A stretch of DNA of 64,000 nucleotides from Promethearchaeota archaeon (GCA_048941015.1 JBHLNZ010000001.1:32001-96000), one strand, 5' to 3'. Shown: positions 10,792-48,504, counted from the first letter of the stretch. Numbers and translations are program-made. Notes: a model not told the origin generated them from the sequence alone.

Positions 10792-10809
10792 TTATTATAT
10801 CTTTCTTTT

Positions 10810-11472
10810 TTAGAATGTGAAAATCACGTCAAAGGGAAATTTATCAAAATTTTTTTCTAAGGTTCTTTTAAATCCCTCTGAAATTGGCTCAAATCCTTTT
10901 CCAATATAATTTCCAATTGAAATATAATCAGGTTTTATGTCTAAAAGAAAATTCTTTAAACTTTTTAAGTTATCAACATTATCATTAATCCCCCTAAAAA
11001 ACATTATATAAATTCCTAAATGACCTTTGTAAGTCCTCTTGAATCTGACCATCCCGTCTAATAACTCTTCTAAACTTAAATCAACACAACAAGGATTCAC
11101 CCTTCCAAAATTTGAAGGCTCGATACTATTAATATTAACTGCTATGAAATCACATTCTAACAATCCTTTTTGCGCTAATTTATTACATAATATGGAGCAA
11201 TTTACATACGTCCCAATTTTTTGATTTGGGTGAGCTTTCTTAATAAGATTGATTAAAAATTTTAATCCATGGAATATATATTGATCATTTGGAATTCTCA
11301 ACCATATATAGTCAGGACTTCCATTTTGGAATAAAAAATGATTTACTTCTCCAATGATTTCCTCGGTAGGAAAATCTTTTACTGAGATTGACTTCAGCGA
11401 ATCAAAATGAATTGGCATTATTATACCAAATCGCTTGTCATGCTGAATTTCATTAATATATTTATATTCCAT
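10810..11472 (-). CDS. Degenerate radical-SAM-like barrel protein lacking CxxxCxxC
   Basis: YVNCSIL, FGRVNP, MFFRGINDN, IKPDYI resemble the C-terminal part of small Fe-S oxidoreductase radical SAM proteins; no cluster motif. Confidence 0.5.
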   Translation of the reverse strand: MEYKYINEIQHDKRFGIIMPIHFDSLKSISVKDFPTEEIIGEVNHFLFQNGSPDYIWLRIPNDQYIFHGLKFLINLIKKAHPNQKIGTYVNCSILCNKLAQKGLLECDFIAVNINSIEPSNFGRVNPCCVDLSLEELLDGMVRFKRTYKGHLGIYIMFFRGINDNVDNLKSLKNFLLDIKPDYISIGNYIGKGFEPISEGFKRTLEKNFDKFPFDVIFTF

Positions 11473-11512
11473 TTACTTTTCCTAAATAAAAATATAATTT
11501 TGTTTAATATCT

Positions 11513-14449
11513 CTAATCCTCGCTTACATCTTTAAAAAGTAGTCTTTCTGAAGGCAATTTCTTAGATTTTATCTTATCTATCCTTTCAAAACATTGTTTT
11601 GCTTTCTCATCATTACCTAGTGCCTGATAAGTTCTTCCCAGCTTTCTATATGTATCAAATACATACCATCCTGTAGGATTTAATTCTAAAGCCGTCTTGA
11701 ATTCTTTGATTGCTTCTTCATATCGCCTAGCCCACATTAAAACTTCTCCATACGTATCGTGATAATTACCAACATCTTGACCAATAGTAACTAACTTTTT
11801 ACCTGTTTCTAATGCTTCCTCTATTCTATTAAGCCTTCCTAAGAAAATTGTTTTATTATTAAGCATATCAAATTCATCGGGGTACTTATCGAGTGCAGTT
11901 TCACAAACTTCCAATCCTAAATCATCCTCACTAATCTCATATGCAATTAAGGATTTAAGTTTAAGAAGAGTTATCTCTTCCTTAGGAAATTCCAATATTA
12001 GTTTATCTAGTAGCATTAAAGATTCATTTGGTTGTTCGGATGAAAAAAGAAGCCAACATTTGTGCCTTTTGTAATCTAGAAGTATAGGTACTAATTCAAT
12101 CGCTTTATCGATCGCTTTTATTGATTCTTCATGCATTCCTATTTGTTCCATTACCATTGATTTTAGGTCATAATATCTCGCTTGATTTAGCTTATTTTGA
12201 TCCAATGATATAGTCATATCAATCTCGGTAAGAAATTTATCTGGTTTTATTTGTGCTTCACTGAAATTGTAGATAAGATCGTAACCATTAACTAAAGCTC
12301 CTGCTAAAGTTGCGATCGGATGATTTGAATGGCGATCTTGAACAGATCTAGCTACTTCTAAGGCTTTATTGAACTTCCCTTGCGTTAAATAAGAATAAAT
12401 TAAGATGAATGATACGGAAGTCTCCAATTTCGGATTCTTATCAAAAAGATTAATAATAATATCTTTTTTTATTATTCTCTTTGCCTCTTTATACCTATGG
12501 ATTATGCTGAGTAAAATTGCTTTTAGAATATAAAACTGTTTATCCTTAGGATTTAATTTGATTATTTTATCTATTAGTTCAAAATCTTCTTCATGAGATA
12601 TAACGCAACATTTCCTATTATACATTATAAAAATAATTTTTGTTTTTAATGCTAAAAGATTCTGTGAATCGCTTTTTAATATATTATCAACAATTTTAAC
12701 TGCTTTTTCATAATCGCCTTTATAAAGCAAGATATATGCTTTTTCGCATAATAATGAGGGATTACTTGCTATTTCCAAGCCTTCATCAATAATATAATCC
12801 GCCTCATCAAATTCTAATAAATAAAACAACGTAATTGATTTCAAAAGATAACCAATATACACTTCAGGATATTTCCTAATAAGTTCTTCTGATAATCTAA
12901 TTGCCTCTATTAAATCAAAAGAATTTGTTGCTACAAGATCTCTTACGATTAAATCTTCTAAATCATTAAACTTCTCTTTATTTTTATTATAAACAGATTT
13001 AATTTTCGATTTTTTACCCTTTAAGAGTAATTCATTTATTTCGTCAAAAATGTCTGCATTTTCATGATTATATAATTTCTTGAATTCAATGGTTGTCAAA
13101 AAATCTGATTTGGTTAATTGCATCACATCTAATGCTTTAAAAATTGAATCATCTATACTATAGTAATATTCATCTTCCATTGATTCTTGTTTTATTATCG
13201 AAGGTTCAAATGATTGAAACTCCTCAAATATATTCTGCCATATAAACCCTTCTCTTTTAGCATCATCTGAAATTAATTTCTTTTCTGTTCCAATTTTATA
13301 AGCGAGATATTTAATATATTCGGGTAAAAATTTTCGCAATGAATCTTTTAATTCATTAACAAAAATATTTTCACATATTTCATTAATAATGTTGTTTAAA
13401 AGGCTAGAAACATTAAATCTTGAACTTATTTCTCTCTCATAACCTGCTAATTTATTTAAGTATGTATATTTTGTAATATAATCATCAATAATTGCTCTTA
13501 ATATACGTTCTAACTTTTCATTTGCTTGAAAATAAAATTCTTTATCAGGAAATACGTCTAATCTGAAAAATTTCACAGGGTACAAATCCTCATCTACTAT
13601 TTTCTCGATAAAGAAATCAAGGGTAGTTTGTTTAATATTATACTTCTTTGCAAACGCCTGAGGAGAAACATACTCTGGATATTGATCTGGATGATTAATT
13701 GAAAGAAATAATAAGATCTTATTGAAATCCTCCTCTTCTTCTAACATATTTTCTACTTTTGAATAACTCATCTTTAGAGTATTGTTTAAAAATCGAAATT
13801 TGATATTATCATCTATAATGTCATATTTATCGTAGAAATCATTTGTATACATGGTTATTTCTTCTATTCGCTTGCTTTCCTCCTCCAAAATTGATTGGCG
13901 ATCTAGATCATAGGTTTTCAGCATCCTAAAGTACTCTACTTTACCAGTAGAAGTTATATAATATTCTTTATTCTCGTTCTTAATGAAACCCTTATCAATC
14001 AAAAAATTTTTACTCTTGGATAATGAGGATTGATTAATACCTAATGGTGGCTCTCGAAAATCGGACCATTTGCAGGATTCATTATTATATAACATCCATA
14101 AAATCCAATGATCATAATTCCTCTTTCTCAAAATTGCTTTTGGAGGATATACTAATTTCGGTCTTCCCAATTCCTCATCATAGGAAATCTCATTAAAATG
14201 GGATCTACCTTCAGTTGTTATCCTATAATGTCCCCTTTTAAATCTATCAATATAATCTTTATTAATTAGATCATTGATATAATTTGAAAGAGTTGATTCA
14301 CTGATCTCTGATTCTTCTGTAAAATCCCGCCATTCGCAATATTCATTATTAGAAAGCATCCAAAGAATTATATATTCATAATTTGGATTTGTTCCAGGAG
14401 GAGATAATATCTCTTTTGGGGGTAAAATTAAATTTTTTGAGCTGCTCAT
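11513..14449 (-). CDS. Tandem winged-helix + TPR-repeat protein (putative transcriptional regulator / peptide receptor), copy 1
   Basis: Two internal repeats NY(E/D)x(I/W)ILWMLxNNExCxWxDF..S(T/S)LS..L..K..I....Y.IT..G; C-terminal TPRs (e.g. YHDTYGEVLMWARRYEEAIKEFKTALELNP); paralog at 45186-47681. Confidence 0.85.
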   Translation of the reverse strand: MSSSKNLILPPKEILSPPGTNPNYEYIILWMLSNNEYCEWRDFTEESEISESTLSNYINDLINKDYIDRFKRGHYRITTEGRSHFNEISYDEELGRPKLVYPPKAILRKRNYDHWILWMLYNNESCKWSDFREPPLGINQSSLSKSKNFLIDKGFIKNENKEYYITSTGKVEYFRMLKTYDLDRQSILEEESKRIEEITMYTNDFYDKYDIIDDNIKFRFLNNTLKMSYSKVENMLEEEEDFNKILLFLSINHPDQYPEYVSPQAFAKKYNIKQTTLDFFIEKIVDEDLYPVKFFRLDVFPDKEFYFQANEKLERILRAIIDDYITKYTYLNKLAGYEREISSRFNVSSLLNNIINEICENIFVNELKDSLRKFLPEYIKYLAYKIGTEKKLISDDAKREGFIWQNIFEEFQSFEPSIIKQESMEDEYYYSIDDSIFKALDVMQLTKSDFLTTIEFKKLYNHENADIFDEINELLLKGKKSKIKSVYNKNKEKFNDLEDLIVRDLVATNSFDLIEAIRLSEELIRKYPEVYIGYLLKSITLFYLLEFDEADYIIDEGLEIASNPSLLCEKAYILLYKGDYEKAVKIVDNILKSDSQNLLALKTKIIFIMYNRKCCVISHEEDFELIDKIIKLNPKDKQFYILKAILLSIIHRYKEAKRIIKKDIIINLFDKNPKLETSVSFILIYSYLTQGKFNKALEVARSVQDRHSNHPIATLAGALVNGYDLIYNFSEAQIKPDKFLTEIDMTISLDQNKLNQARYYDLKSMVMEQIGMHEESIKAIDKAIELVPILLDYKRHKCWLLFSSEQPNESLMLLDKLILEFPKEEITLLKLKSLIAYEISEDDLGLEVCETALDKYPDEFDMLNNKTIFLGRLNRIEEALETGKKLVTIGQDVGNYHDTYGEVLMWARRYEEAIKEFKTALELNPTGWYVFDTYRKLGRTYQALGNDEKAKQCFERIDKIKSKKLPSERLLFKDVSED

Positions 14450-14497
14450 TTTTTAAAATTCCTCTTGTAACTTCATTTAACTCCTATAATAACGTAT

Positions 14498-14596
14498 AGT
14501 TCGAAGTTATATTTATACTTTACACTTCGAAATAAAGTATGAACCATTGCCGAAGTTCAAACTTCACTGCGAAGTTCGAAGTACAAACCTATAAAT
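14498..14596. promoter_or_regulatory. Divergent promoter region with repeated GAAGT/ACTTC operator-like sites and TATA box
   Basis: AGTTCGAAGT at 14498 and 14573, ACTTCGAA 14524, palindrome GAAGTTcaAACTTC 14552-14565, TATAAAT 14590-14596. Confidence 0.6.
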
Positions 14597-14678
14597 GAAT
14601 TATTATCCTAATAAAAATTAATAACAAAAAAGAAAAAACGAGAAAGAAACACAAAAAAAAGTTAAGAGGTTATAAAAA

Positions 14679-14918
14679 ATGGCACAAGTAGAATTAAGAA
14701 AAGTTGAGCCAAAAAAATGTGTTGATATAGAATTAATAAAATTAGATGAACTCCCTGTTCCCGAAGTCATAGAAGAAAAGGAAGAGGAGATTATAAAGAA
14801 AAAAGGATTGAAAGGCATTATAAATAAATTTCGTAATCATGCCAAATATCATGAAGAATTCATAAATATTGAAAAAGTTAAACGTCAATTAATTTATAGG
14901 AACTTTGGAGTTAATTAA
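14679..14918 (+). CDS. Small protein (79 aa), CVDIE...YRNFG family, copy 1
   Basis: GAGGT at 14666-14670; shares CVDIE and NIxxVKxQxxYRNFG with 47857-48132. Confidence 0.85.
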   Translation: MAQVELRKVEPKKCVDIELIKLDELPVPEVIEEKEEEIIKKKGLKGIINKFRNHAKYHEEFINIEKVKRQLIYRNFGVN

Positions 14919-14960
14919 AATTTTTTCAAGTAAGATTATGTTAAAAATTGATGATAAAAA

Positions 14961-15044
14961 ATGAGTTTAAAAGAAAAAATAAAGGTATGGGTTTGTAGAC
15001 ACTTCTGTTCTGCGTCATGCCGAGCGGAAATCTGCGCTGAATGA
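14961..15044 (+). CDS. 27-aa Cys-rich peptide MSLKEKIKVWVCRHFCSASCRAEICAE
   Basis: Manual translation; inside the small-ORF operon; GC-rich relative to flanks; Cx3Cx3Cx4C. Confidence 0.55.
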   Translation: MSLKEKIKVWVCRHFCSASCRAEICAE

Positions 15045-15082
15045 AATTATAATTAAAATAAAAAAAAAGAGGTACAAAAAAA

Positions 15083-15148
15083 ATGGCAAGAAAAGAAAGA
15101 TTGATAATAATTAGAAATGATGAGTTTAACTCGAGATATTTTAGATAA
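15083..15148 (+). CDS. 21-aa peptide MARKERLIIIRNDEFNSRYFR (conserved peptide family)
   Basis: GAGGT at 15069-15073; ungapped similarity to peptides at 15206 and 48177. Confidence 0.8.
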   Translation: MARKERLIIIRNDEFNSRYFR

Positions 15149-15205
15149 TTAATTTCAAAATATAAAAATATATTCAAAATAAAAATTAAAAAGAGGTAGA
15201 AGGAA

Positions 15206-15274
15206 ATGAACGAGAAAAAAAGAATAATTGTGTTAAAAAACGCGAGCTATAACGTAAAATATTTCAAATGGTAA
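15206..15274 (+). CDS. 22-aa peptide MNEKKRIIVLKNASYNVKYFKW (conserved peptide family)
   Basis: GAGGT at 15193-15197; ungapped similarity to peptides at 15083 and 48177; followed by T-tract. Confidence 0.82.
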   Translation: MNEKKRIIVLKNASYNVKYFKW

Positions 15275-15285
15275 TCAAATTCACA

Positions 15286-15298
15286 TTTTTTTATTTTT
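15286..15298 (+). terminator. Oligo-T tract after the peptide operon
   Basis: TTTTTTTATTTTT; equivalent T8 tract at 48252-48259 in copy 2. Confidence 0.4.
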
Positions 15299-15317
15299 AA
15301 GACGTATTAAACAAATC

Positions 15318-15406
15318 CTCCAATTTGTTTGAAGCTTTCCGTACAATCACTTAATAGGATGATACCCACGCACCTGGGCAGACGAGTGCTCAGGTGCATT
15401 CCATCC
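15318..15406 (+). ncRNA. Conserved structured non-coding element, copy 1 (function unknown)
   Basis: 54/64 nt ungapped identity to 48283-48346; stem GCACCTGGGCA/TGCTCAGGTGC with a G-U pair; outer GGATG/CATCC. Confidence 0.6.
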
Positions 15407-15652
15407 ATCAACAATTAATGCAACCATAATTTCATAAAATTCTGATCATTTATGACTCCTGCAGCCGTCTTCTTTGTTGGAATAATCATCCCAAATCTGT
15501 TAATAGTCTTAATAGATGGGTTTGGTGGAGTCATCTTTTAAAATAAACATAAATTTTTTAGAGTTGTTTTTTCCTTTTTTCGATTTTTTTTTTAAATATA
15601 TACGATAAAACCAGACTATATTTCCTGAACTATTTATTAAAGGTTAATTAAG

Positions 15653-17095
15653 TTGAATACTTCAGAATTGTATGAGCTTTTTAGGCACACTCAAAAAATA
15701 AGTGAAGATTTTAAAGTCAATTTGAAGAAAAAAAAGACATTTCAAACGCTTTTTTTCCTCTATTTCATGATATATGTTTTTATAGGTATTTTACCTGCGA
15801 ATATTGATAATTTACTTATTACACTTCCTCAAACTACTAAGATGGGTATTGGGATCATAATTACAAGTAGTCTTTTTACAGGTATAATTAGTGTATTAAT
15901 ATTTGGTTATGTTGGTGATAAATTATCCTACAAAGCTTCACGTAAAAAGCTTTTTATTGTTACAAACTTGTTATGGATAATTGGATATGGCCTCTTTTCA
16001 TTATCGTTAAACTATATCTCTTTATTGATTTTAACCGTTATAGCTGCTATAGGCACTGGAGCATTTTTACCTATAGGTTTTTCATTTATAAGTGATTTAT
16101 TTCCTTCAGATAAACGGGGTAGTAAATTCGGGACAATGCAATTTGGAATGATTGTAGGTAATGGTACTGGAATCATTTTTGGAGCAATTTTAGGGACTCT
16201 TTTAAACTTTAATGGTTGGAGACTTGCATATGGAATAAGCTTTTTCCTTGGTGTAATTGCTATTTTAATGTATGTAAGTAAAGCGCAAGCTCCTATTCGT
16301 AAAAGGACAGAACCAGAATTAGCAAATTTTAATGTCGACTATAATTATAAAATTACGTTTGCCTCTATTTTTCAATTATTTCGTATAAAATCAATTATGG
16401 CAATCTTCCTTGCTGTTTTCTGTTCAGGGATAGCGCTATCCACACTTGGAAACTGGGCTATATTCTACTTATCCATAAAAATTTCCAGTTCAAATGCAGA
16501 GGGTTTAGCTACAGTTATTTATCTTTTGGTAGGATTAGGAGCCCTTCCTGGAACGATCATCGGAGGCAAAATGGGAGATTCTTCTTTGCGTCAGGGAAAA
16601 ATTAGAGGGCGAATCGTAATCTCAATAACTGGTCTTATTTCTGGAGTTTCATTAATGATGATTTTTTATATTTTTCCCTTTTTCACATACCATTCTATAT
16701 TCGTATTGATTTTCTGGATTATTTTTATTACTCTGGGTTTTATAGGATATTGCTTTTCTTATTTTTCTATGGGAAATCAATTTGCAATATATTCAGAAGT
16801 GTGTATTCCTGAGCTAAGGAGTACTGCCAATGCCATCAATGGACTAATGTTAAATATCGGAGGGATAATGGGTAACCTCATAATCTCTTCTCTTATTCAA
16901 AGCAATCTCGGTTTATTACCTTTTGCTATATTTTCAGTGTTAGCAATTTGGTTGTTTGGTTCCTTTTTATGGTTTATTGCTTACTCACAATATCCTAAAG
17001 ATGTCCTTAATCGAAGAAATGTTTTATTAGGAAGAAGAGAAGTGTTAAATCAGCAAATAAAGTCCCCTAAGCTTCATGAAGTTCTTAGAGCTTAA
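15653..17095 (+). CDS. MFS transporter
   Basis: FGYVGDK..RKK, SDLFPSDKRG, ~12 TM. Confidence 0.85.
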   Translation: MNTSELYELFRHTQKISEDFKVNLKKKKTFQTLFFLYFMIYVFIGILPANIDNLLITLPQTTKMGIGIIITSSLFTGIISVLIFGYVGDKLSYKASRKKLFIVTNLLWIIGYGLFSLSLNYISLLILTVIAAIGTGAFLPIGFSFISDLFPSDKRGSKFGTMQFGMIVGNGTGIIFGAILGTLLNFNGWRLAYGISFFLGVIAILMYVSKAQAPIRKRTEPELANFNVDYNYKITFASIFQLFRIKSIMAIFLAVFCSGIALSTLGNWAIFYLSIKISSSNAEGLATVIYLLVGLGALPGTIIGGKMGDSSLRQGKIRGRIVISITGLISGVSLMMIFYIFPFFTYHSIFVLIFWIIFITLGFIGYCFSYFSMGNQFAIYSEVCIPELRSTANAINGLMLNIGGIMGNLIISSLIQSNLGLLPFAIFSVLAIWLFGSFLWFIAYSQYPKDVLNRRNVLLGRREVLNQQIKSPKLHEVLRA

Positions 17096-17252
17096 AAAAG
17101 TTGCTATATATCAATCGAAAATGTCATTTAATTCTAATTTTACCTTTTTTTTCTTTTAAAATGACTCACCTATTTGATAAATAACTGATATTTGCAGATC
17201 AGAAGCGATTTTAAATACACTAATTAGTTTACTATATTGAGTTAATTATTTT

Positions 17253-17624
17253 TTAATCTCCTGTTGGAATTATAGTGCTCTTTTCTATCAATAAAATTGA
17301 AGTACGGGTAGGAGCTCTAGTACGATGTGTTACGCCCTTTGGAACTGTAAACCCTTGATTTTTCTTTAGTTCAATCAGTTTTTCTTCTAAATCAATTAAA
17401 AGGAGTCCATCGATAACGAAAAAAAATTCATCTTCTTTTTCATGTTTGTGCCAATGAAATTCTCCCTCGATGACGGCAAGTCTGACAACAGAATCATTAA
17501 CTTCACAAAGCGATAAATTCTGCCATTTTTTCTTACAACCTACGATTAATTTTGGTATGTCAATAACTTCTAATGGCATAAATTTTATTTGAAGATCGAT
17601 TGAATATTTATTATTTTCACTCAT
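17253..17624 (-). CDS. Cupin-domain protein
   Basis: GEFHWHKHEKEDEFF, VPKGVTHR. Confidence 0.88.
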   Translation of the reverse strand: MSENNKYSIDLQIKFMPLEVIDIPKLIVGCKKKWQNLSLCEVNDSVVRLAVIEGEFHWHKHEKEDEFFFVIDGLLLIDLEEKLIELKKNQGFTVPKGVTHRTRAPTRTSILLIEKSTIIPTGD

Positions 17625-45081: not shown

Positions 45082-45155
45082 GGGGTGGTAGTCCAGCTTG
45101 GTAGGATTCTTGGTTCGGGATCAAGAGGTCGAGGGTTCAAGTCCCTCCTACCCCA
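45082..45155 (+). tRNA. trnP: tRNA-Pro (anticodon CGG), intronless, CCA not encoded
   Basis: Acceptor GGGGTGG/CTACCCC + A; anticodon arm CTTGG-TTCGGGA-TCAAG; T arm GAGGG-TTCAAGT-CCCTC. Confidence 0.95.
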
Positions 45156-45185: not shown

Positions 45186-47681
45186 TTATTCTAAAAACTC
45201 CTTAACTTCGATTATACTGTTCCTTGCTCTTTCTTTCCATTCATCCATATTCTCAAAATCACAGATACATCTCGCTGCGTGATCTAAGCCCTTCTCATAA
45301 CTCTCTTTTGCTTTTTCATACTCTTCAAGGGCTCTATAAGCATCTCCCATCTTGATAGCAGTTTGATAGCAGTACCATCCATTAGGCTCTATTTCCATAG
45401 CTTTCTGGAATTCTTGGATTGCTTGTTTGTATTTTCCAAACCATAACAAGATTTCACCATATGAATCATGATAATTTCCCTCATCAGGAGCAATTTCTAT
45501 TAATTTCTTACCGATCTCAATTGCTTCTTCTTTTTGGTTTAATTTTCCAAGTTCGTACAATTTACTATTGAAAAGTTCTGGATCAGAGGGTTCTTTTTCC
45601 AATAATTCATTAGTGATCTTTAGACTTTCACTATAATCTCCCATCCAATAGAGAAATGAAGACTTCTTTTGTAAAATCTTCTTTTCCTGATCTGGAAATT
45701 GTTTTAACAATTCATCCGTTAATCTAATTACCCCTTCAAAATCTTTTTCAAATTTCATTAATATTTTTATTTTCGAGAAATACAACCAAAGACTTTTTGG
45801 TTTTAAATTATTGATCTCATTTGTTTCTTCAAGCGCTTCTTGATATCTTTTTAATTCTTGTAATACAAAGCTCTTTAATTGATGGATAAGGGCTTTATTA
45901 GTATTATCAGTTTCTAATGAAATAGCTTTATCGGTAACGCTCAAGAAATCCTTATCTATATCCGACTTTCCTTTCTCAAAGTTATAAATTAAATTATATC
46001 CATGAACTAGTGCTTTTGCAAGATATGCTATTGAGTTTTTAGGGTGATCCTGTAGTAACTCATTAGCAACTCTTAATGCTTTCTTAAATTTACCTTGATT
46101 CAAATATATGAATGTAAAAATAAAAGAGCGACTTAGAGCTAACTGAGAATTAACAGAGACGATTGATTGATCAACTCCTTCTTTTAACAATTTTTCGGCT
46201 TCTTTATGTCTATTCAAATAGCAAAGAAGAATTGATTTAAGTATAATTAAATTTTGATTTTCTGCCTCCTTTTGTAGTTCTGATTCAGCTATCTCTAACG
46301 CTTCTTTTAGTTCCCAATCATCAATTAATTCCTGGATTTTGATGATTTGCTTATTCTCAGAAATATAAATCGATTCTAAAATACCTAAAATACTTGGATA
46401 TAAAAAGAAATAAGGATCACTATGATTTATTTGTAAATTTTCAAATTCGTTCATAAATTCTTGTATCGCAATTCCTCTGAGTTTATCATCTGTTTCGATC
46501 AATCTTCTTTGCTTTTCGATTTTATATGCTAAATGTTTGATATATTCTGGTAAAAATCTTTTTAACGCTTCTCTCATCTCTCCATTAAAAATATGATCAC
46601 AGATTTCATTTAATACTTGATTAACAACAATTGAGATATACATAACAGGAGGTTCACTAGAAGTATTATCGTAAAATTCATTTAAGTAAGTGAATTGTGT
46701 AATATAATCATCAACAATAGCTCTTAAAACTCTTTCAATTTTCTCACCAGCTTGGAAATAATAAGTACGCCCCTCATCATCTTCTAATTTGAAGAATTTA
46801 ATGGGAAATATTTTTTCGTCAATAATTTTCATGATAAAAAACTTCAATATCTCTTCTCTAATATTGAATTTTAGACAAAAGTCTTTAGCGGAAATGTAAT
46901 TAGGATACTGATTTGGATGATTAATTGCGATATATAATAAAATCTTGTTAAAATCTTCTTCAGCTATAAAGTTTTCAGATTTAGAATAATCTAATTTTAA
47001 TATATTGTTTAAAAGGCGAAACTTTATACCATTATCATCAATATTATACTTCTCAAAGAATTTACTCATTTTGTCAGTAATCTCTTTTACTCTTTTACGC
47101 TCTTCATCTAAAATAGATTGACGATCTAAATCGTACTCCTTTAAGATTTCAGCATAGGCAATCTTACCAGCATTAGCAATTCTATATTTATTATTCTCTT
47201 TTTTTATCAATCCATCCTCTTGTAAAAAATTCAAATTCTTCGATAATGAAGAATTGTTAATAAAAATTGGATTATCATCTCCTTGAAAATCCGACCATTT
47301 GCAATAATTATTATTATAGCATATCCATAAAATCCAATGGTAATAATTACGTCTTTTTAAGATAGTTTTTGGAGGATAACTTAATTTACGTTTAATTTTT
47401 CTCGATTTTGATAACTGTCTAAACCTTTCTTCACCCTCAGGGGTAATCTGATACTTTCCTCGTTCCTCATTGATGATAAATCCTTTATTTATTAACTTGT
47501 TTCTATAATTTGAGAATGTACTTTGACTAATATTAATTGGATCGTCTAGAAAGTCTGACCATTCACATTCCTCGTTATTAGATAACATCCAAAGAATAAT
47601 ATGTTCATAGTTTTTTCTTTCTGCATCCAGGATTTCTTTTGGTGGATAATTGGTTATTGCTGTTTTACTCACAAAAATCAC
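45186..47681 (-). CDS. Tandem winged-helix + TPR-repeat protein, copy 2
   Basis: NYEHIILWMLSNNEECEWSDF, YPPKTILKRRNYYHWILW, YDLDRQSIL, GNYHDSYGEIL shared with 11513-14449; fewer TPRs. Confidence 0.85.
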   Translation of the reverse strand: MIFVSKTAITNYPPKEILDAERKNYEHIILWMLSNNEECEWSDFLDDPINISQSTFSNYRNKLINKGFIINEERGKYQITPEGEERFRQLSKSRKIKRKLSYPPKTILKRRNYYHWILWICYNNNYCKWSDFQGDDNPIFINNSSLSKNLNFLQEDGLIKKENNKYRIANAGKIAYAEILKEYDLDRQSILDEERKRVKEITDKMSKFFEKYNIDDNGIKFRLLNNILKLDYSKSENFIAEEDFNKILLYIAINHPNQYPNYISAKDFCLKFNIREEILKFFIMKIIDEKIFPIKFFKLEDDEGRTYYFQAGEKIERVLRAIVDDYITQFTYLNEFYDNTSSEPPVMYISIVVNQVLNEICDHIFNGEMREALKRFLPEYIKHLAYKIEKQRRLIETDDKLRGIAIQEFMNEFENLQINHSDPYFFLYPSILGILESIYISENKQIIKIQELIDDWELKEALEIAESELQKEAENQNLIILKSILLCYLNRHKEAEKLLKEGVDQSIVSVNSQLALSRSFIFTFIYLNQGKFKKALRVANELLQDHPKNSIAYLAKALVHGYNLIYNFEKGKSDIDKDFLSVTDKAISLETDNTNKALIHQLKSFVLQELKRYQEALEETNEINNLKPKSLWLYFSKIKILMKFEKDFEGVIRLTDELLKQFPDQEKKILQKKSSFLYWMGDYSESLKITNELLEKEPSDPELFNSKLYELGKLNQKEEAIEIGKKLIEIAPDEGNYHDSYGEILLWFGKYKQAIQEFQKAMEIEPNGWYCYQTAIKMGDAYRALEEYEKAKESYEKGLDHAARCICDFENMDEWKERARNSIIEVKEFLE

Positions 47682-47752
47682 AATTAGTTCTTTAATACCG
47701 TTATAATATAATTATTGAAACTACAATTTAAAGTTACTTATACAAAATCTAA

Positions 47753-47818
47753 TAATGAACTTTCATTAAACTACATAGTTCATCTGAACTATATGTAGAA
47801 TAACTATAAATCGAAGTA
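47753..47818. promoter_or_regulatory. Divergent promoter with inverted-repeat operators and TATA box
   Basis: TAATGAActTTCATTA 47753-47768; ATAGTTCAtcTGAACTAT 47775-47792; TATAAAT 47805-47811; TCGAAGTA 47811-47818. Confidence 0.6.
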
Positions 47819-47856
47819 TATCTTATAATTAATTAAGAAAAAAAAAGTGATTAAAA

Positions 47857-48245: not shown

Positions 48246-48282
48246 ATTAAATTTTTTTTCTAATATTTTTATTAAATTTATT

Positions 48283-48378
48283 CTCCAATTTGTGTAAAAC
48301 TTTCCAATCGATCACTTAATAGGATGATACGCACATACCTGGGCAGAGAAGAATGAATGCTCAGGGGCGTATCATCTT
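48283..48378 (+). ncRNA. Conserved structured non-coding element, copy 2 (function unknown)
   Basis: Stems AGGATGATACGC/GCGTATCATCTT and CCTGGGCA/TGCTCAGG; homologous to 15318-15406. Confidence 0.6.
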
Positions 48379-48504
48379 ACAAAACTTTGTAAATGTTTCC
48401 CTTAATATTTGTAGTAGAAATTTTCTAATTTTTTTCCGGAAAAGAAGAAATTTATAAATAGAAGGGAAGTATAGTTATTCATTAGAAATCATACGTAGAA
48501 GATC

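Follow-up and report, generated by a model that had tools for sequence, protein, structure and literature searches.

A conserved box-and-hairpin element at the right-hand end of two regulator-micropeptide cassettes in an Asgard archaeon, very probably a small structured RNA

Introduction

In the arbitrium system of Bacillus phages, the operator of the AimR receptor sits between aimP and aimX (PMC6536502, PMC9232636), and AimX is now described as a small protein (PMC10769878). Here we analyze a stretch of 64,000 nucleotides (nt) from an Asgard (Hodarchaeales-type) archaeon (Promethearchaeota archaeon, GCA_048941015.1 JBHLNZ010000001.1:32001-96000), called the window throughout, in which two regulator-plus-micropeptide cassettes each end in one copy of a conserved non-coding element. 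The likeness to arbitrium is one of layout only: a helix-turn-helix/TPR receptor and a small peptide gene are followed by a conserved control site and a small output unit, and the modules are portable. There is no sequence relationship between the two systems, the receptor gene here is divergent from the peptide genes and encodes tandem winged-helix domains, and, unlike AimX, the element contains no conserved open reading frame (ORF).

The element can also be compared with mRNA-stabilizing stem-loops, such as REP or intercistronic hairpins, and with small RNAs (sRNAs) derived from 3' untranslated regions (3'UTRs). As in those cases, a sense GC-rich hairpin follows a small, probably highly expressed gene, its pairing is kept while its loop drifts, and in two lineages the hairpin lies within the peptide 3'UTR with no terminator before it. 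It differs from them in being present in 2-3 copies per genome rather than the hundreds typical of REP, in having a stem sequence that is conserved across species, in carrying an invariant unpaired 27-nt box, and in being preceded in its own genome by a strong U-tract terminator. In archaea, termination is most effective with two tracts of U4 or more and needs no hairpin, and a Lokiarchaeota aCPSF1 ortholog behaves alike in U-tract termination (PMC8716108). Conserved non-coding elements are almost uncharted in Asgard archaea, and a full-text literature search for small or non-coding RNAs of this group brought no paper on the topic to light.

Results

Both cassettes run from a minus-strand regulator gene across a divergent promoter to an ORF of 79 or 91 amino acids (aa), genes for 21-22-aa peptides, U-tracts and finally the element. 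The regulators are large proteins with winged-helix domains and TPR repeats (978 aa at 11513-14449 and 831 aa at 45186-47681, both on the minus strand). A preliminary description of the window had proposed a ~90-nt hairpin element just after the T-tract of each peptide operon, with 54 of 64 positions identical without gaps between 15318-15381 and 48283-48346. This identity held up and lies far above what composition would give, as the best 64-nt match of the two intergenic regions after shuffling reached 36 positions at most (mean 33). The exact 20-mer reported to be common to both copies, ATCACTTAATAGGATGATAC, was found in the window only at 15346-15365 and 48311-48330, compared to a chance expectation of ~0.01 matches even when 3 mismatches are allowed. 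U-tracts precede both copies, and MAFFT aligned them from the stop codon of the 22-aa peptide gene via the T-rich tract to the 3' end of the hairpin, beyond which similarity is gone. The element is therefore real and hairpin-forming, as proposed, but its unit had to be redrawn: two blocks are under selection, an unpaired 27-nt 5' box and a hairpin of 50-57 nt that starts 16 nt later, and the 16-nt linker between them varies freely. The parts of both copies, all on the plus strand, are as follows.

15286-15298, plus strand: double U-tract T7-A-T5, read from the sequence, after the stop codon of the 22-aa peptide gene and upstream of copy 1; probable terminator of the peptide operon
15305-15312, plus strand: TATA-like TATTAAAC of copy 1, 8 nt upstream of the CTCC of the box; putative promoter element
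15314-15340, plus strand: 5' box of copy 1, AATCCTCCAATTTGTTTGAAGCTTTCC, predicted to be unpaired
15319-15332, plus strand: core of the copy 1 box, TCCAATTTGTTTGA
15341-15356, plus strand: variable linker of copy 1
15357-15406, plus strand: hairpin of copy 1, from fold, conservation and helix covariation
15357-15361 and 15402-15406, plus strand: lower stem of copy 1, GGATG/CATCC, from the fold
15362-15369 and 15398-15401, plus strand: internal loops of copy 1, from the fold
15370-15380 and 15387-15397, plus strand: upper stem of copy 1, GCACCTGGGCA/TGCTCAGGTGC, from the fold
15381-15386, plus strand: apical loop of copy 1, GACGAG, 6 nt, from the fold
48252-48270, plus strand: U-tracts T8 then T5, read from the sequence, after the stop codon of the 22-aa peptide gene and upstream of copy 2
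48270-48277, plus strand: TATA-like TATTAAAT of copy 2, read from the sequence, in the same register as in copy 1
48279-48305, plus strand: 5' box of copy 2, TATTCTCCAATTTGTGTAAAACTTTCC
48306-48320, plus strand: linker of copy 2, 69% identical to that of contig L109 (scored over 48306-48321)
48321-48378, plus strand: hairpin of copy 2, from the fold
48321-48332 and 48367-48378, plus strand: lower stem of copy 2, 12 base pairs (bp), AGGATGATACGC/GCGTATCATCTT, from the fold
48338-48345 and 48358-48365, plus strand: upper stem of copy 2, CCTGGGCA/TGCTCAGG, from the fold
48346-48357, plus strand: apical loop of copy 2, GAGAAGAATGAA, 12 nt, from the fold

Comparison with related cassettes separated these blocks from their surroundings. 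Between copy 1 and contig L110, which are ~81% identical overall with flanking intergenic regions at 81-95%, the box is identical at 27/27 positions and the hairpin at 49/50, its one change falling in the internal loop, with the linker at 69%. The corresponding values against L141 (regulator 86% identical in aa) are 27/27, 50/50 and 94%, with flanking intergenic regions at 81-93%. Against the more distant L143 (regulator 69% identical in aa) they are 26/27, 47/50 and 75%, on a background of 70% for the regulator gene and 63-72% for intergenic regions, and all three hairpin changes fall in or beside the internal loop. Copy 2 and L109 share 24/27 box positions, 72% of the hairpin and 69% of the linker (genes ~86%, intergenic regions 64-85%); here the apical and internal loops have changed, and the stems show a compensatory C-G to U-A change and a G-U to A-U change. 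The box of L114 likewise matches copy 2 at 24/27 positions, and the boxes of copies 1 and 2 match each other at 22/27. DNA past the stem is unconserved, with 41-57% identity (78% for the first 36 nt in L110), and homology of copy 2 to L109 ends at 48379. Overall, conservation of box and hairpin stems equals that of the best-conserved peptide gene, pep1 (97% against L143), while the linker, loops and internal loop vary. By these alignments, both box and hairpin are under purifying selection.

At 15353-15356 and 48318-48321, both copies in the window read TTAATAGG, whereas TTAAAAGG stands there in L110 (copy-1 type) as well as in L109 (copy-2 type). Should L109 and L110 belong to a single organism, the paralogous copies would be changing together, via gene conversion or a shared partner.

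Folding bore out the stems of the preliminary description. Both copies form the common stem CCTGGGCA/TGCTCAGG with one G-U pair, around the loops GACGAG (6 nt) and GAGAAGAATGAA (12 nt), and both are closed by the outer stems that had been proposed, GGATG/CATCC in copy 1 and the 12-bp AGGATGATACGC/GCGTATCATCTT in copy 2. The plus strand folds at -27.8 kcal/mol for copy 1 and -30.6 kcal/mol for copy 2 (z of -3.2 and -4.2, with 0 of 200 shuffles as good), compared to a z of about -1.7 for minus-strand folding, and the sense strand is the more stable one in 10 of 12 copies. The mid-helix G-U pair, which is a C-A mismatch on the other strand, is kept in four of seven distinct sequences and is A-U in two. 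Conservation of this pair and the folding energies both agree with the earlier suggestion that the plus, cassette-sense strand is favored.

Pairing is also maintained among homologs. In the upper helix, (GCA)CCUGRGCA/UGCUCAGG(UGC), 91% of cells pair (10 copies, 7 distinct), versus 20-39% when the 3' partners are slid. Three of its pairs (4 cells) carry compensatory double changes; shuffles reach the observed values 0-6 times in 500, and the covariation score of the helix is matched by 1 of 500 shuffles. RNAalifold applied to five full-length homologs returned 19 pairs, two of them compensatory, which is modestly above shuffles. Lower stems differ between species yet pair (GGAUGAUAC/GUAUCAUCC versus AAAUCCAAA/UUUGGAUUU), and the loops, 6-12 nt long, are unrelated in sequence except for GACGAG, which is common to the copy-1 group and copy A of G054. 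The helix thus covaries among homologs, with compensatory changes above controls as a general test for structured RNA would demand, though in few independent lineages. Because the spacing of the arms varies and changes in them are compensated, the hairpin looks like a folded single strand and not like a double-stranded dimer site of fixed geometry. The element is very probably functional as a folded sense-strand RNA.

The element is confined to a narrow set of relatives. In its own genome (3.59 Mb, 144 contigs, 95% complete) the two window copies are the only ones. Searching 40 relatives with the element by blastn gave no real match, and a covariance model built from the two window copies (R1) yielded a single clear homolog, located where contig G054:C194 begins; G054, deposited as a Candidatus Hodarchaeota metagenome-assembled genome, is the named relative with the element. 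An exact-motif scan of metagenome contigs added L110, with a copy-1-type cassette, and L109, with a copy-2-type cassette. L114 (with an element identical to that of L109), L141/L142, L143 and L146 came from contigs that carry the closest regulator homologs. A further model (R2), together with hairpin patterns, brought in one copy in G021 and three in G043; of these four, three lie on the peptide side of a cassette. Matches of R1 or R2 in L064, L065, L118, L119 and L124 lie inside ORFs and were discarded, and relaxed-pattern matches in L154, L156 and L158, which have the look of conserved coding sequence, were put down to chance. The strict pattern CCTGNGCA-N4-14-TGCNCAGG detected the hairpin in 3 of 154 genomes of the order, all of one genus, with no control matches in the genus; this pattern misses diverged copies such as L146, and the true range is somewhat wider. 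A scan of viral contigs for the element was empty, and the hairpin pattern gave only chance matches across all species genomes, in GC-rich bacteria.

Copies of the element go with the cassettes. Both cassettes of the window carry one, as do all five other lineages with enough flanking sequence (L141/L142, L110, L143, L146 and L109/L114), and five of seven full copies in genomes of the genus lie just downstream of the peptide side of a cassette, so the proposed link to the peptide module was upheld. The two regulators are the only ones of their kind in their own genome; other species of the genus have up to eight. The many unlinked copies expected of a MITE or REP-like repeat, a possibility raised in the preliminary description, were not seen: with two copies in its own genome, at most three full copies in any genome searched and no repeats at the cassette ends, this class was rejected. 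We conclude that the element is real, strongly selected, lineage-restricted, non-coding and owned by the cassette, whose right-hand end it marks.

Several of the homologous loci have features of their own. In G054:C194 (L106 1-243, 995-1089 and 2114-2153) the 5' box is present twice, and the linker of copy A has a 16-nt deletion. The second box, on the other strand, precedes an unrelated hairpin and is divergent from a leucine-rich repeat (LRR) gene; the two boxes face each other 190 nt apart and are 91% complementary. The 3' half of the hairpin, together with T8 and ~60 nt, is repeated behind one LRR-repeat gene, with a diverged copy of the hairpin 3' half behind a second. The first LRR gene ends in a stretch complementary over 31 nt (81%) to the DNA that follows the repeat. 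Contig L157 (G021:C189), at 1-1527, holds a decaying cassette in which two TAA stops break the regulator frame and the stop codon of the peptide gene is lost; the CCTGAGC...GCTCAGG hairpin and an upstream CAGTCTT..TTCTAAATCCA block are intact despite this decay. In L129 (G043:C189, 1-1384 on the minus strand), the gene after the peptide gene and hairpin resembles, from its sequence, an ABC substrate-binding protein of the peptide-binding type. No terminator-like T-run lies in between, so this gene may be co-transcribed with the 17-aa peptide gene.

The element matches no known RNA family, in agreement with the preliminary description. Rfam 15 at the gathering threshold returned only tRNA-Pro from the window, and permissive scans of both element regions gave nothing below an E-value of 0.04; the best permissive match, snR85, reached 21.7 bits against a gathering score of 37 and involved copy 2 only. 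An archaeal H/ACA sRNA, a class in which a conserved ACA box lies 14-16 nt 3' of the pseudouridylation pocket, was considered and rejected. The element resembles that class in having a single hairpin with an internal loop and, in both window copies, an ACA 13 nt past the upper stem, but the ACA is absent in L110 (ACCAAAAA), L109 (AAAUCAU) and copy A of G054. No K-turn or K-loop interrupts the upper stem, whose helix is regular Watson-Crick and whose loop varies, and the pocket of copy 2 is closed into the 12-bp stem. A C/D box sRNA was rejected as well, as GGAUGAUAC differs from the C box RUGAUGA expected near the 5' end and is fully paired, and the sole CUGA (15444-15447), the D box motif expected near the 3' end, sits where the L110 alignment breaks down. 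Neither window copy has a T4 or longer run within ~45 nt past the stem, which rejects a bacterial-type intrinsic terminator; a stem followed by a U-run occurs only in copy A of G054 (T8) and the first cassette of G043:C189 (T6). The kinds of element that come closest are sRNAs and 3'UTR hairpin modules, and the element is very probably a new small structured RNA of the cassette.

A translated micro-ORF in the element has hardly any probability. An ATG within GGATGATAC is conserved and a frame is open through the hairpin in several copies, so that translation could start, for example, at 15359 to give MIPTHLGRRVLRCIPSINN, and a 20-aa frame exists on the minus strand. The products, however, would be 19, 19, 10, 8 and 27 aa long with unrelated tails. 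Of the changes read between copy 1 and L110, those in the plus-strand frame are non-synonymous, as are most of those in the minus-strand frame; no synonymous change occurs in the conserved part of the hairpin, and the 16-nt deletion in copy A of G054 breaks the minus-strand frame.

A second type of element, here called type B, was found behind the peptide genes of a cassette subfamily with regulators of ~850 aa (L022:817-937 on the minus strand, L023:778-896 minus, L025:829-949 minus, L027:3407-3525 plus and L044:1093-1211 minus). It consists of CACGxGTACxTTTTCATTTCC, ~13 nt, a AAGGGAGGGG/CCCTCCCTT hairpin with a T-rich loop of ~40 nt, and then a T-run. Both types thus follow a peptide gene and U-tracts with a conserved unpaired block ending in TTTCC, ~13 nt and a GC-rich hairpin, and L023 keeps AATTTGTAAAACTTTC, as does copy 2. 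Type B differs in its hairpin sequence, in its ~40-nt loop full of T-runs and in the T-run after the stem. A third model (R3) placed it in 7 of 41 genomes of the genus, mostly beside cassettes; it is absent from the genome studied here. No hairpin was found behind the peptide genes of the other cassette subfamilies examined. A structured element at this position is therefore recurrent, not universal, and its sequence turns over.

Further observations concern the cassettes themselves. The first 21-aa peptide gene (15083-15148, MARKERLIIIRNDEFNSRYFR) is 97-100% identical in nucleotides to its counterparts in L110, L141 and L143, synonymous sites included; the second is 87% identical to that of L143. 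Because neighboring intergenic regions of L143 are only 65-72% identical, the nucleotide sequence of the first peptide gene itself looks constrained, in addition to the peptide. The divergent promoters (14450-14678 and 47682-47856) contain cassette-specific palindromes, GAAGTTCAAACTTC and CGAAGTTCGAAG in the copy 1 cassette and CTACATAGTTCATCTGAACTATATGTAG in the copy 2 cassette, which are largely kept in the closest related cassettes, L110 and L109, and are unrelated to the 5' box. The copy 1 cassette is a discrete block at 10807-15442, from a 220-aa radical-SAM-like gene through the hairpin. In L110 a cassette of this type has other genes on both flanks: the segment equivalent to 15443-17250, with an MFS gene and its promoter, is absent, and the hairpin lies ~50 nt from a convergent cupin gene, the counterpart of 17253-17624. 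A tRNA-Pro gene (45082-45155) lies 30 nt from the 3' end of the copy 2 regulator gene, and L110 has another (L110:1789-1865), at ~480 nt from its copy-1-type cassette on the left-hand side. No att-like tRNA repeat was found at the end of the hairpin.

Discussion

We favor the interpretation, at a probability of roughly 0.4, that the element is a small RNA transcribed on the sense strand as a separate unit, beyond the double U-tract terminator that closes the peptide operon. In all window-type cassettes that were read, the peptide stop codon is separated from the box by two U-tracts (T7-T9 plus T4-T5), with a double tract equivalent to the T7-A-T5 of copy 1 in the L110, L143, L146, copy 2 and L109 alignments. 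As double U-tracts are highly efficient in archaea, the element lies beyond a probable strong terminator. The sequence (T/A)ATTAAA(C/T) stands at equal distance in five lineages (copy 1, L110, L143, copy 2 and L109). Along with the upstream U-tracts and this TATA-like sequence at a fixed distance, the second box of G054 with its different hairpin and the T8 after copy A of G054 argue for a separate unit.

From these features we infer a promoter, a start site, RNA ends and a possible trans-acting role. The TATA-like ATTAAA 8 nt upstream of the box would be a promoter element, and the first half of the box (TCCAATTTGTTT) would be a promoter-proximal or operator stretch. With the spacing from TATA to start that is usual in archaea, transcription would begin near the G/A that ends TCCAATTTGTTTGA, at ~15331 and ~48296. 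The RNA would begin ...CUUUCC, cross the variable linker and fold into the GC-rich hairpin, a stable RNA body that may protect the 3' end. As the hairpin lacks a conserved U-tract behind it, trimming as far as the stem would define the 3' end. Either this RNA, or the box as DNA, would be the non-coding output or control point of the cassette. A more specific and distinctly less probable version, built by analogy, is that the element is the regulated non-coding output of a peptide-sensing circuit, in which the winged-helix/TPR receptor would bind the 27-bp box and switch the hairpin RNA in a manner dependent on the micropeptides.

A number of observations weigh against a separate unit. TATA-like strings are everywhere in a genome of 30% GC, a figure that holds for the window as well (~30%), and the positions of promoter, start and ends are guesses; the tRNA upstream regions, 16 in all, were too scarce and too AT-rich to serve for a promoter model. 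No conserved U-tract lies past the stem, the nearest T5 or longer run being ~150 nt downstream of copy 1 and ~50 nt downstream of copy 2, and the covariation of the helix rests on few independent lineages. In the second cassette of G043:C189 (C189b) and in G021:C189 the hairpin lies ~55 nt past the peptide gene without a U-tract or 5' box, and looks like a plain 3'UTR element. Targets were not apparent either: predicted duplexes between the unpaired part and the cassette mRNAs did not exceed shuffles (p 0.47-0.92), the box was no more similar to the divergent promoters of the cassettes than shuffles were, and a genome search with the 14-nt box core at 2 mismatches gave 143 matches against 69 for the control, none of which looks related. 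Genome matches complementary to the box all lie inside ORFs.

These same points bear on the other explanations. A 3'UTR or 3'-end element is less probable than a unit of its own but leads the alternatives: transcripts that read through the U-tracts would end in the hairpin, which would block 3'-to-5' decay or aid termination and so raise or tune peptide mRNA levels, with the box as a protein- or RNA-binding site in the UTR. What keeps this explanation alive is that a sense hairpin at the 3' edge of the peptide unit is common to all lineages, always in the sense of the peptide genes and directly behind the last of them. The lack of a U-tract between peptide gene and hairpin in G043:C189b and G021:C189 fits it, as do the end of synteny at the hairpin, the T6 (G043:C189a) or T8 (copy A of G054) right after the stem, much like a classical stem-plus-U terminator, and the repetition of the G054 hairpin 3' half and T8 behind two LRR genes. 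The strong double U-tract that precedes the window-type copies read would leave little read-through, however, and archaeal termination needs no hairpins (PMC8716108). The window copies have no U-tract past the stem, a simple stabilizer leaves the invariant unpaired 27-nt box unexplained, and box B of G054 is downstream of no peptide gene. A DNA control site, at which the tandem winged-helix/TPR regulator of the cassette or another factor would bind the box, with or without the imperfect palindrome, as double-stranded DNA and switch what lies downstream, is improbable. Its invariant 27 bp would suit the footprint expected of a tandem winged-helix protein, the order of regulator, peptide and conserved site mirrors arbitrium (PMC6536502, PMC9232636), the stem sequence itself is conserved across species and not its pairing alone, and the next gene is co-directional in most contexts and often encodes a membrane or transport protein. 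On the other side, palindrome arms spaced by 6-12 nt, compensatory changes and a conserved G-U pair fit a folded single strand, and the divergent promoters of the cassettes contain no related motif. The box is also nearly constant while the regulators are 54% identical (first 450 residues) and the promoter palindromes differ, and the downstream genes of L110 are convergent.

The preliminary description had also suggested a leader of the downstream membrane-protein gene, and the next genes in the window, for an MFS transporter (15653) and a 193-aa protein (48505), are indeed co-directional and encode membrane proteins. The suggestion of a 5' leader or attenuator did not survive comparison and is now very unlikely. 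The next gene differs by lineage, with at least six contexts, one of them convergent: the MFS transporter after copy 1 and in L141, a convergent cupin gene in L110, which lacks the MFS gene, the 193-aa membrane protein after copy 2, a methyltransferase-like gene in L109/L114 and an ABC binding protein gene in G043 (both by sequence reading only), and a 98-aa ORF in L146. Homology and synteny between strains stop 0-36 nt past the hairpin, and T-runs and TATA-like boxes intervene between element and gene (T6, T6, T6, T10 and TTTAAATATATA for copy 1; T7 and TTTATAAATA for copy 2). That sharp border could instead point to a recombination site or mobile cassette end, with the hairpin recognized as single-stranded DNA like integron attC or IS200/IS605 ends. 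The cassettes are discrete, their flanks differ in related genomes with a right breakpoint 0-36 nt from the stem, a junction in G054 falls inside the hairpin, and both the window (45082-45155) and L110 have a tRNA-Pro gene next to the cassette. This explanation nevertheless has a very low probability, given that the cassette ends have no terminal inverted or direct repeats, that only 2-3 copies exist per genome, and that no recombinase or transposase gene was seen among the ORFs listed around either cassette, nor an integrase-like ORF noted there on reading the sequence. An integron attC was rejected, as no R''/L''-L'/R' cores (RYYYAAC ... GTTRRRY) flank the stem, by reading of the sequence and not by an attC model.

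Against a divergence of 30-40% in neighboring DNA, the element is as invariant as the best-conserved micropeptide gene. It is physically linked to cassettes that encode a DNA-binding/TPR protein and 21-22-aa peptides, and it shows exactly where such a portable cassette ends on the right. Even as no more than a 3'-end stabilizer, it would be a sequence-conserved hairpin signal in a lineage thought to terminate by U-tracts alone. If it is an RNA output or a control site, it would give the proposed peptide circuit a concrete read-out, consisting of one promoter, an RNA of ~80 nt and a 27-bp box. Should the element prove to be the output of a peptide-sensing circuit, the cassettes would be an Asgard analogue of the receptor, peptide, operator and output logic of RRNPP and arbitrium systems, and would offer a first handle for testing peptide signaling in Asgard archaea.

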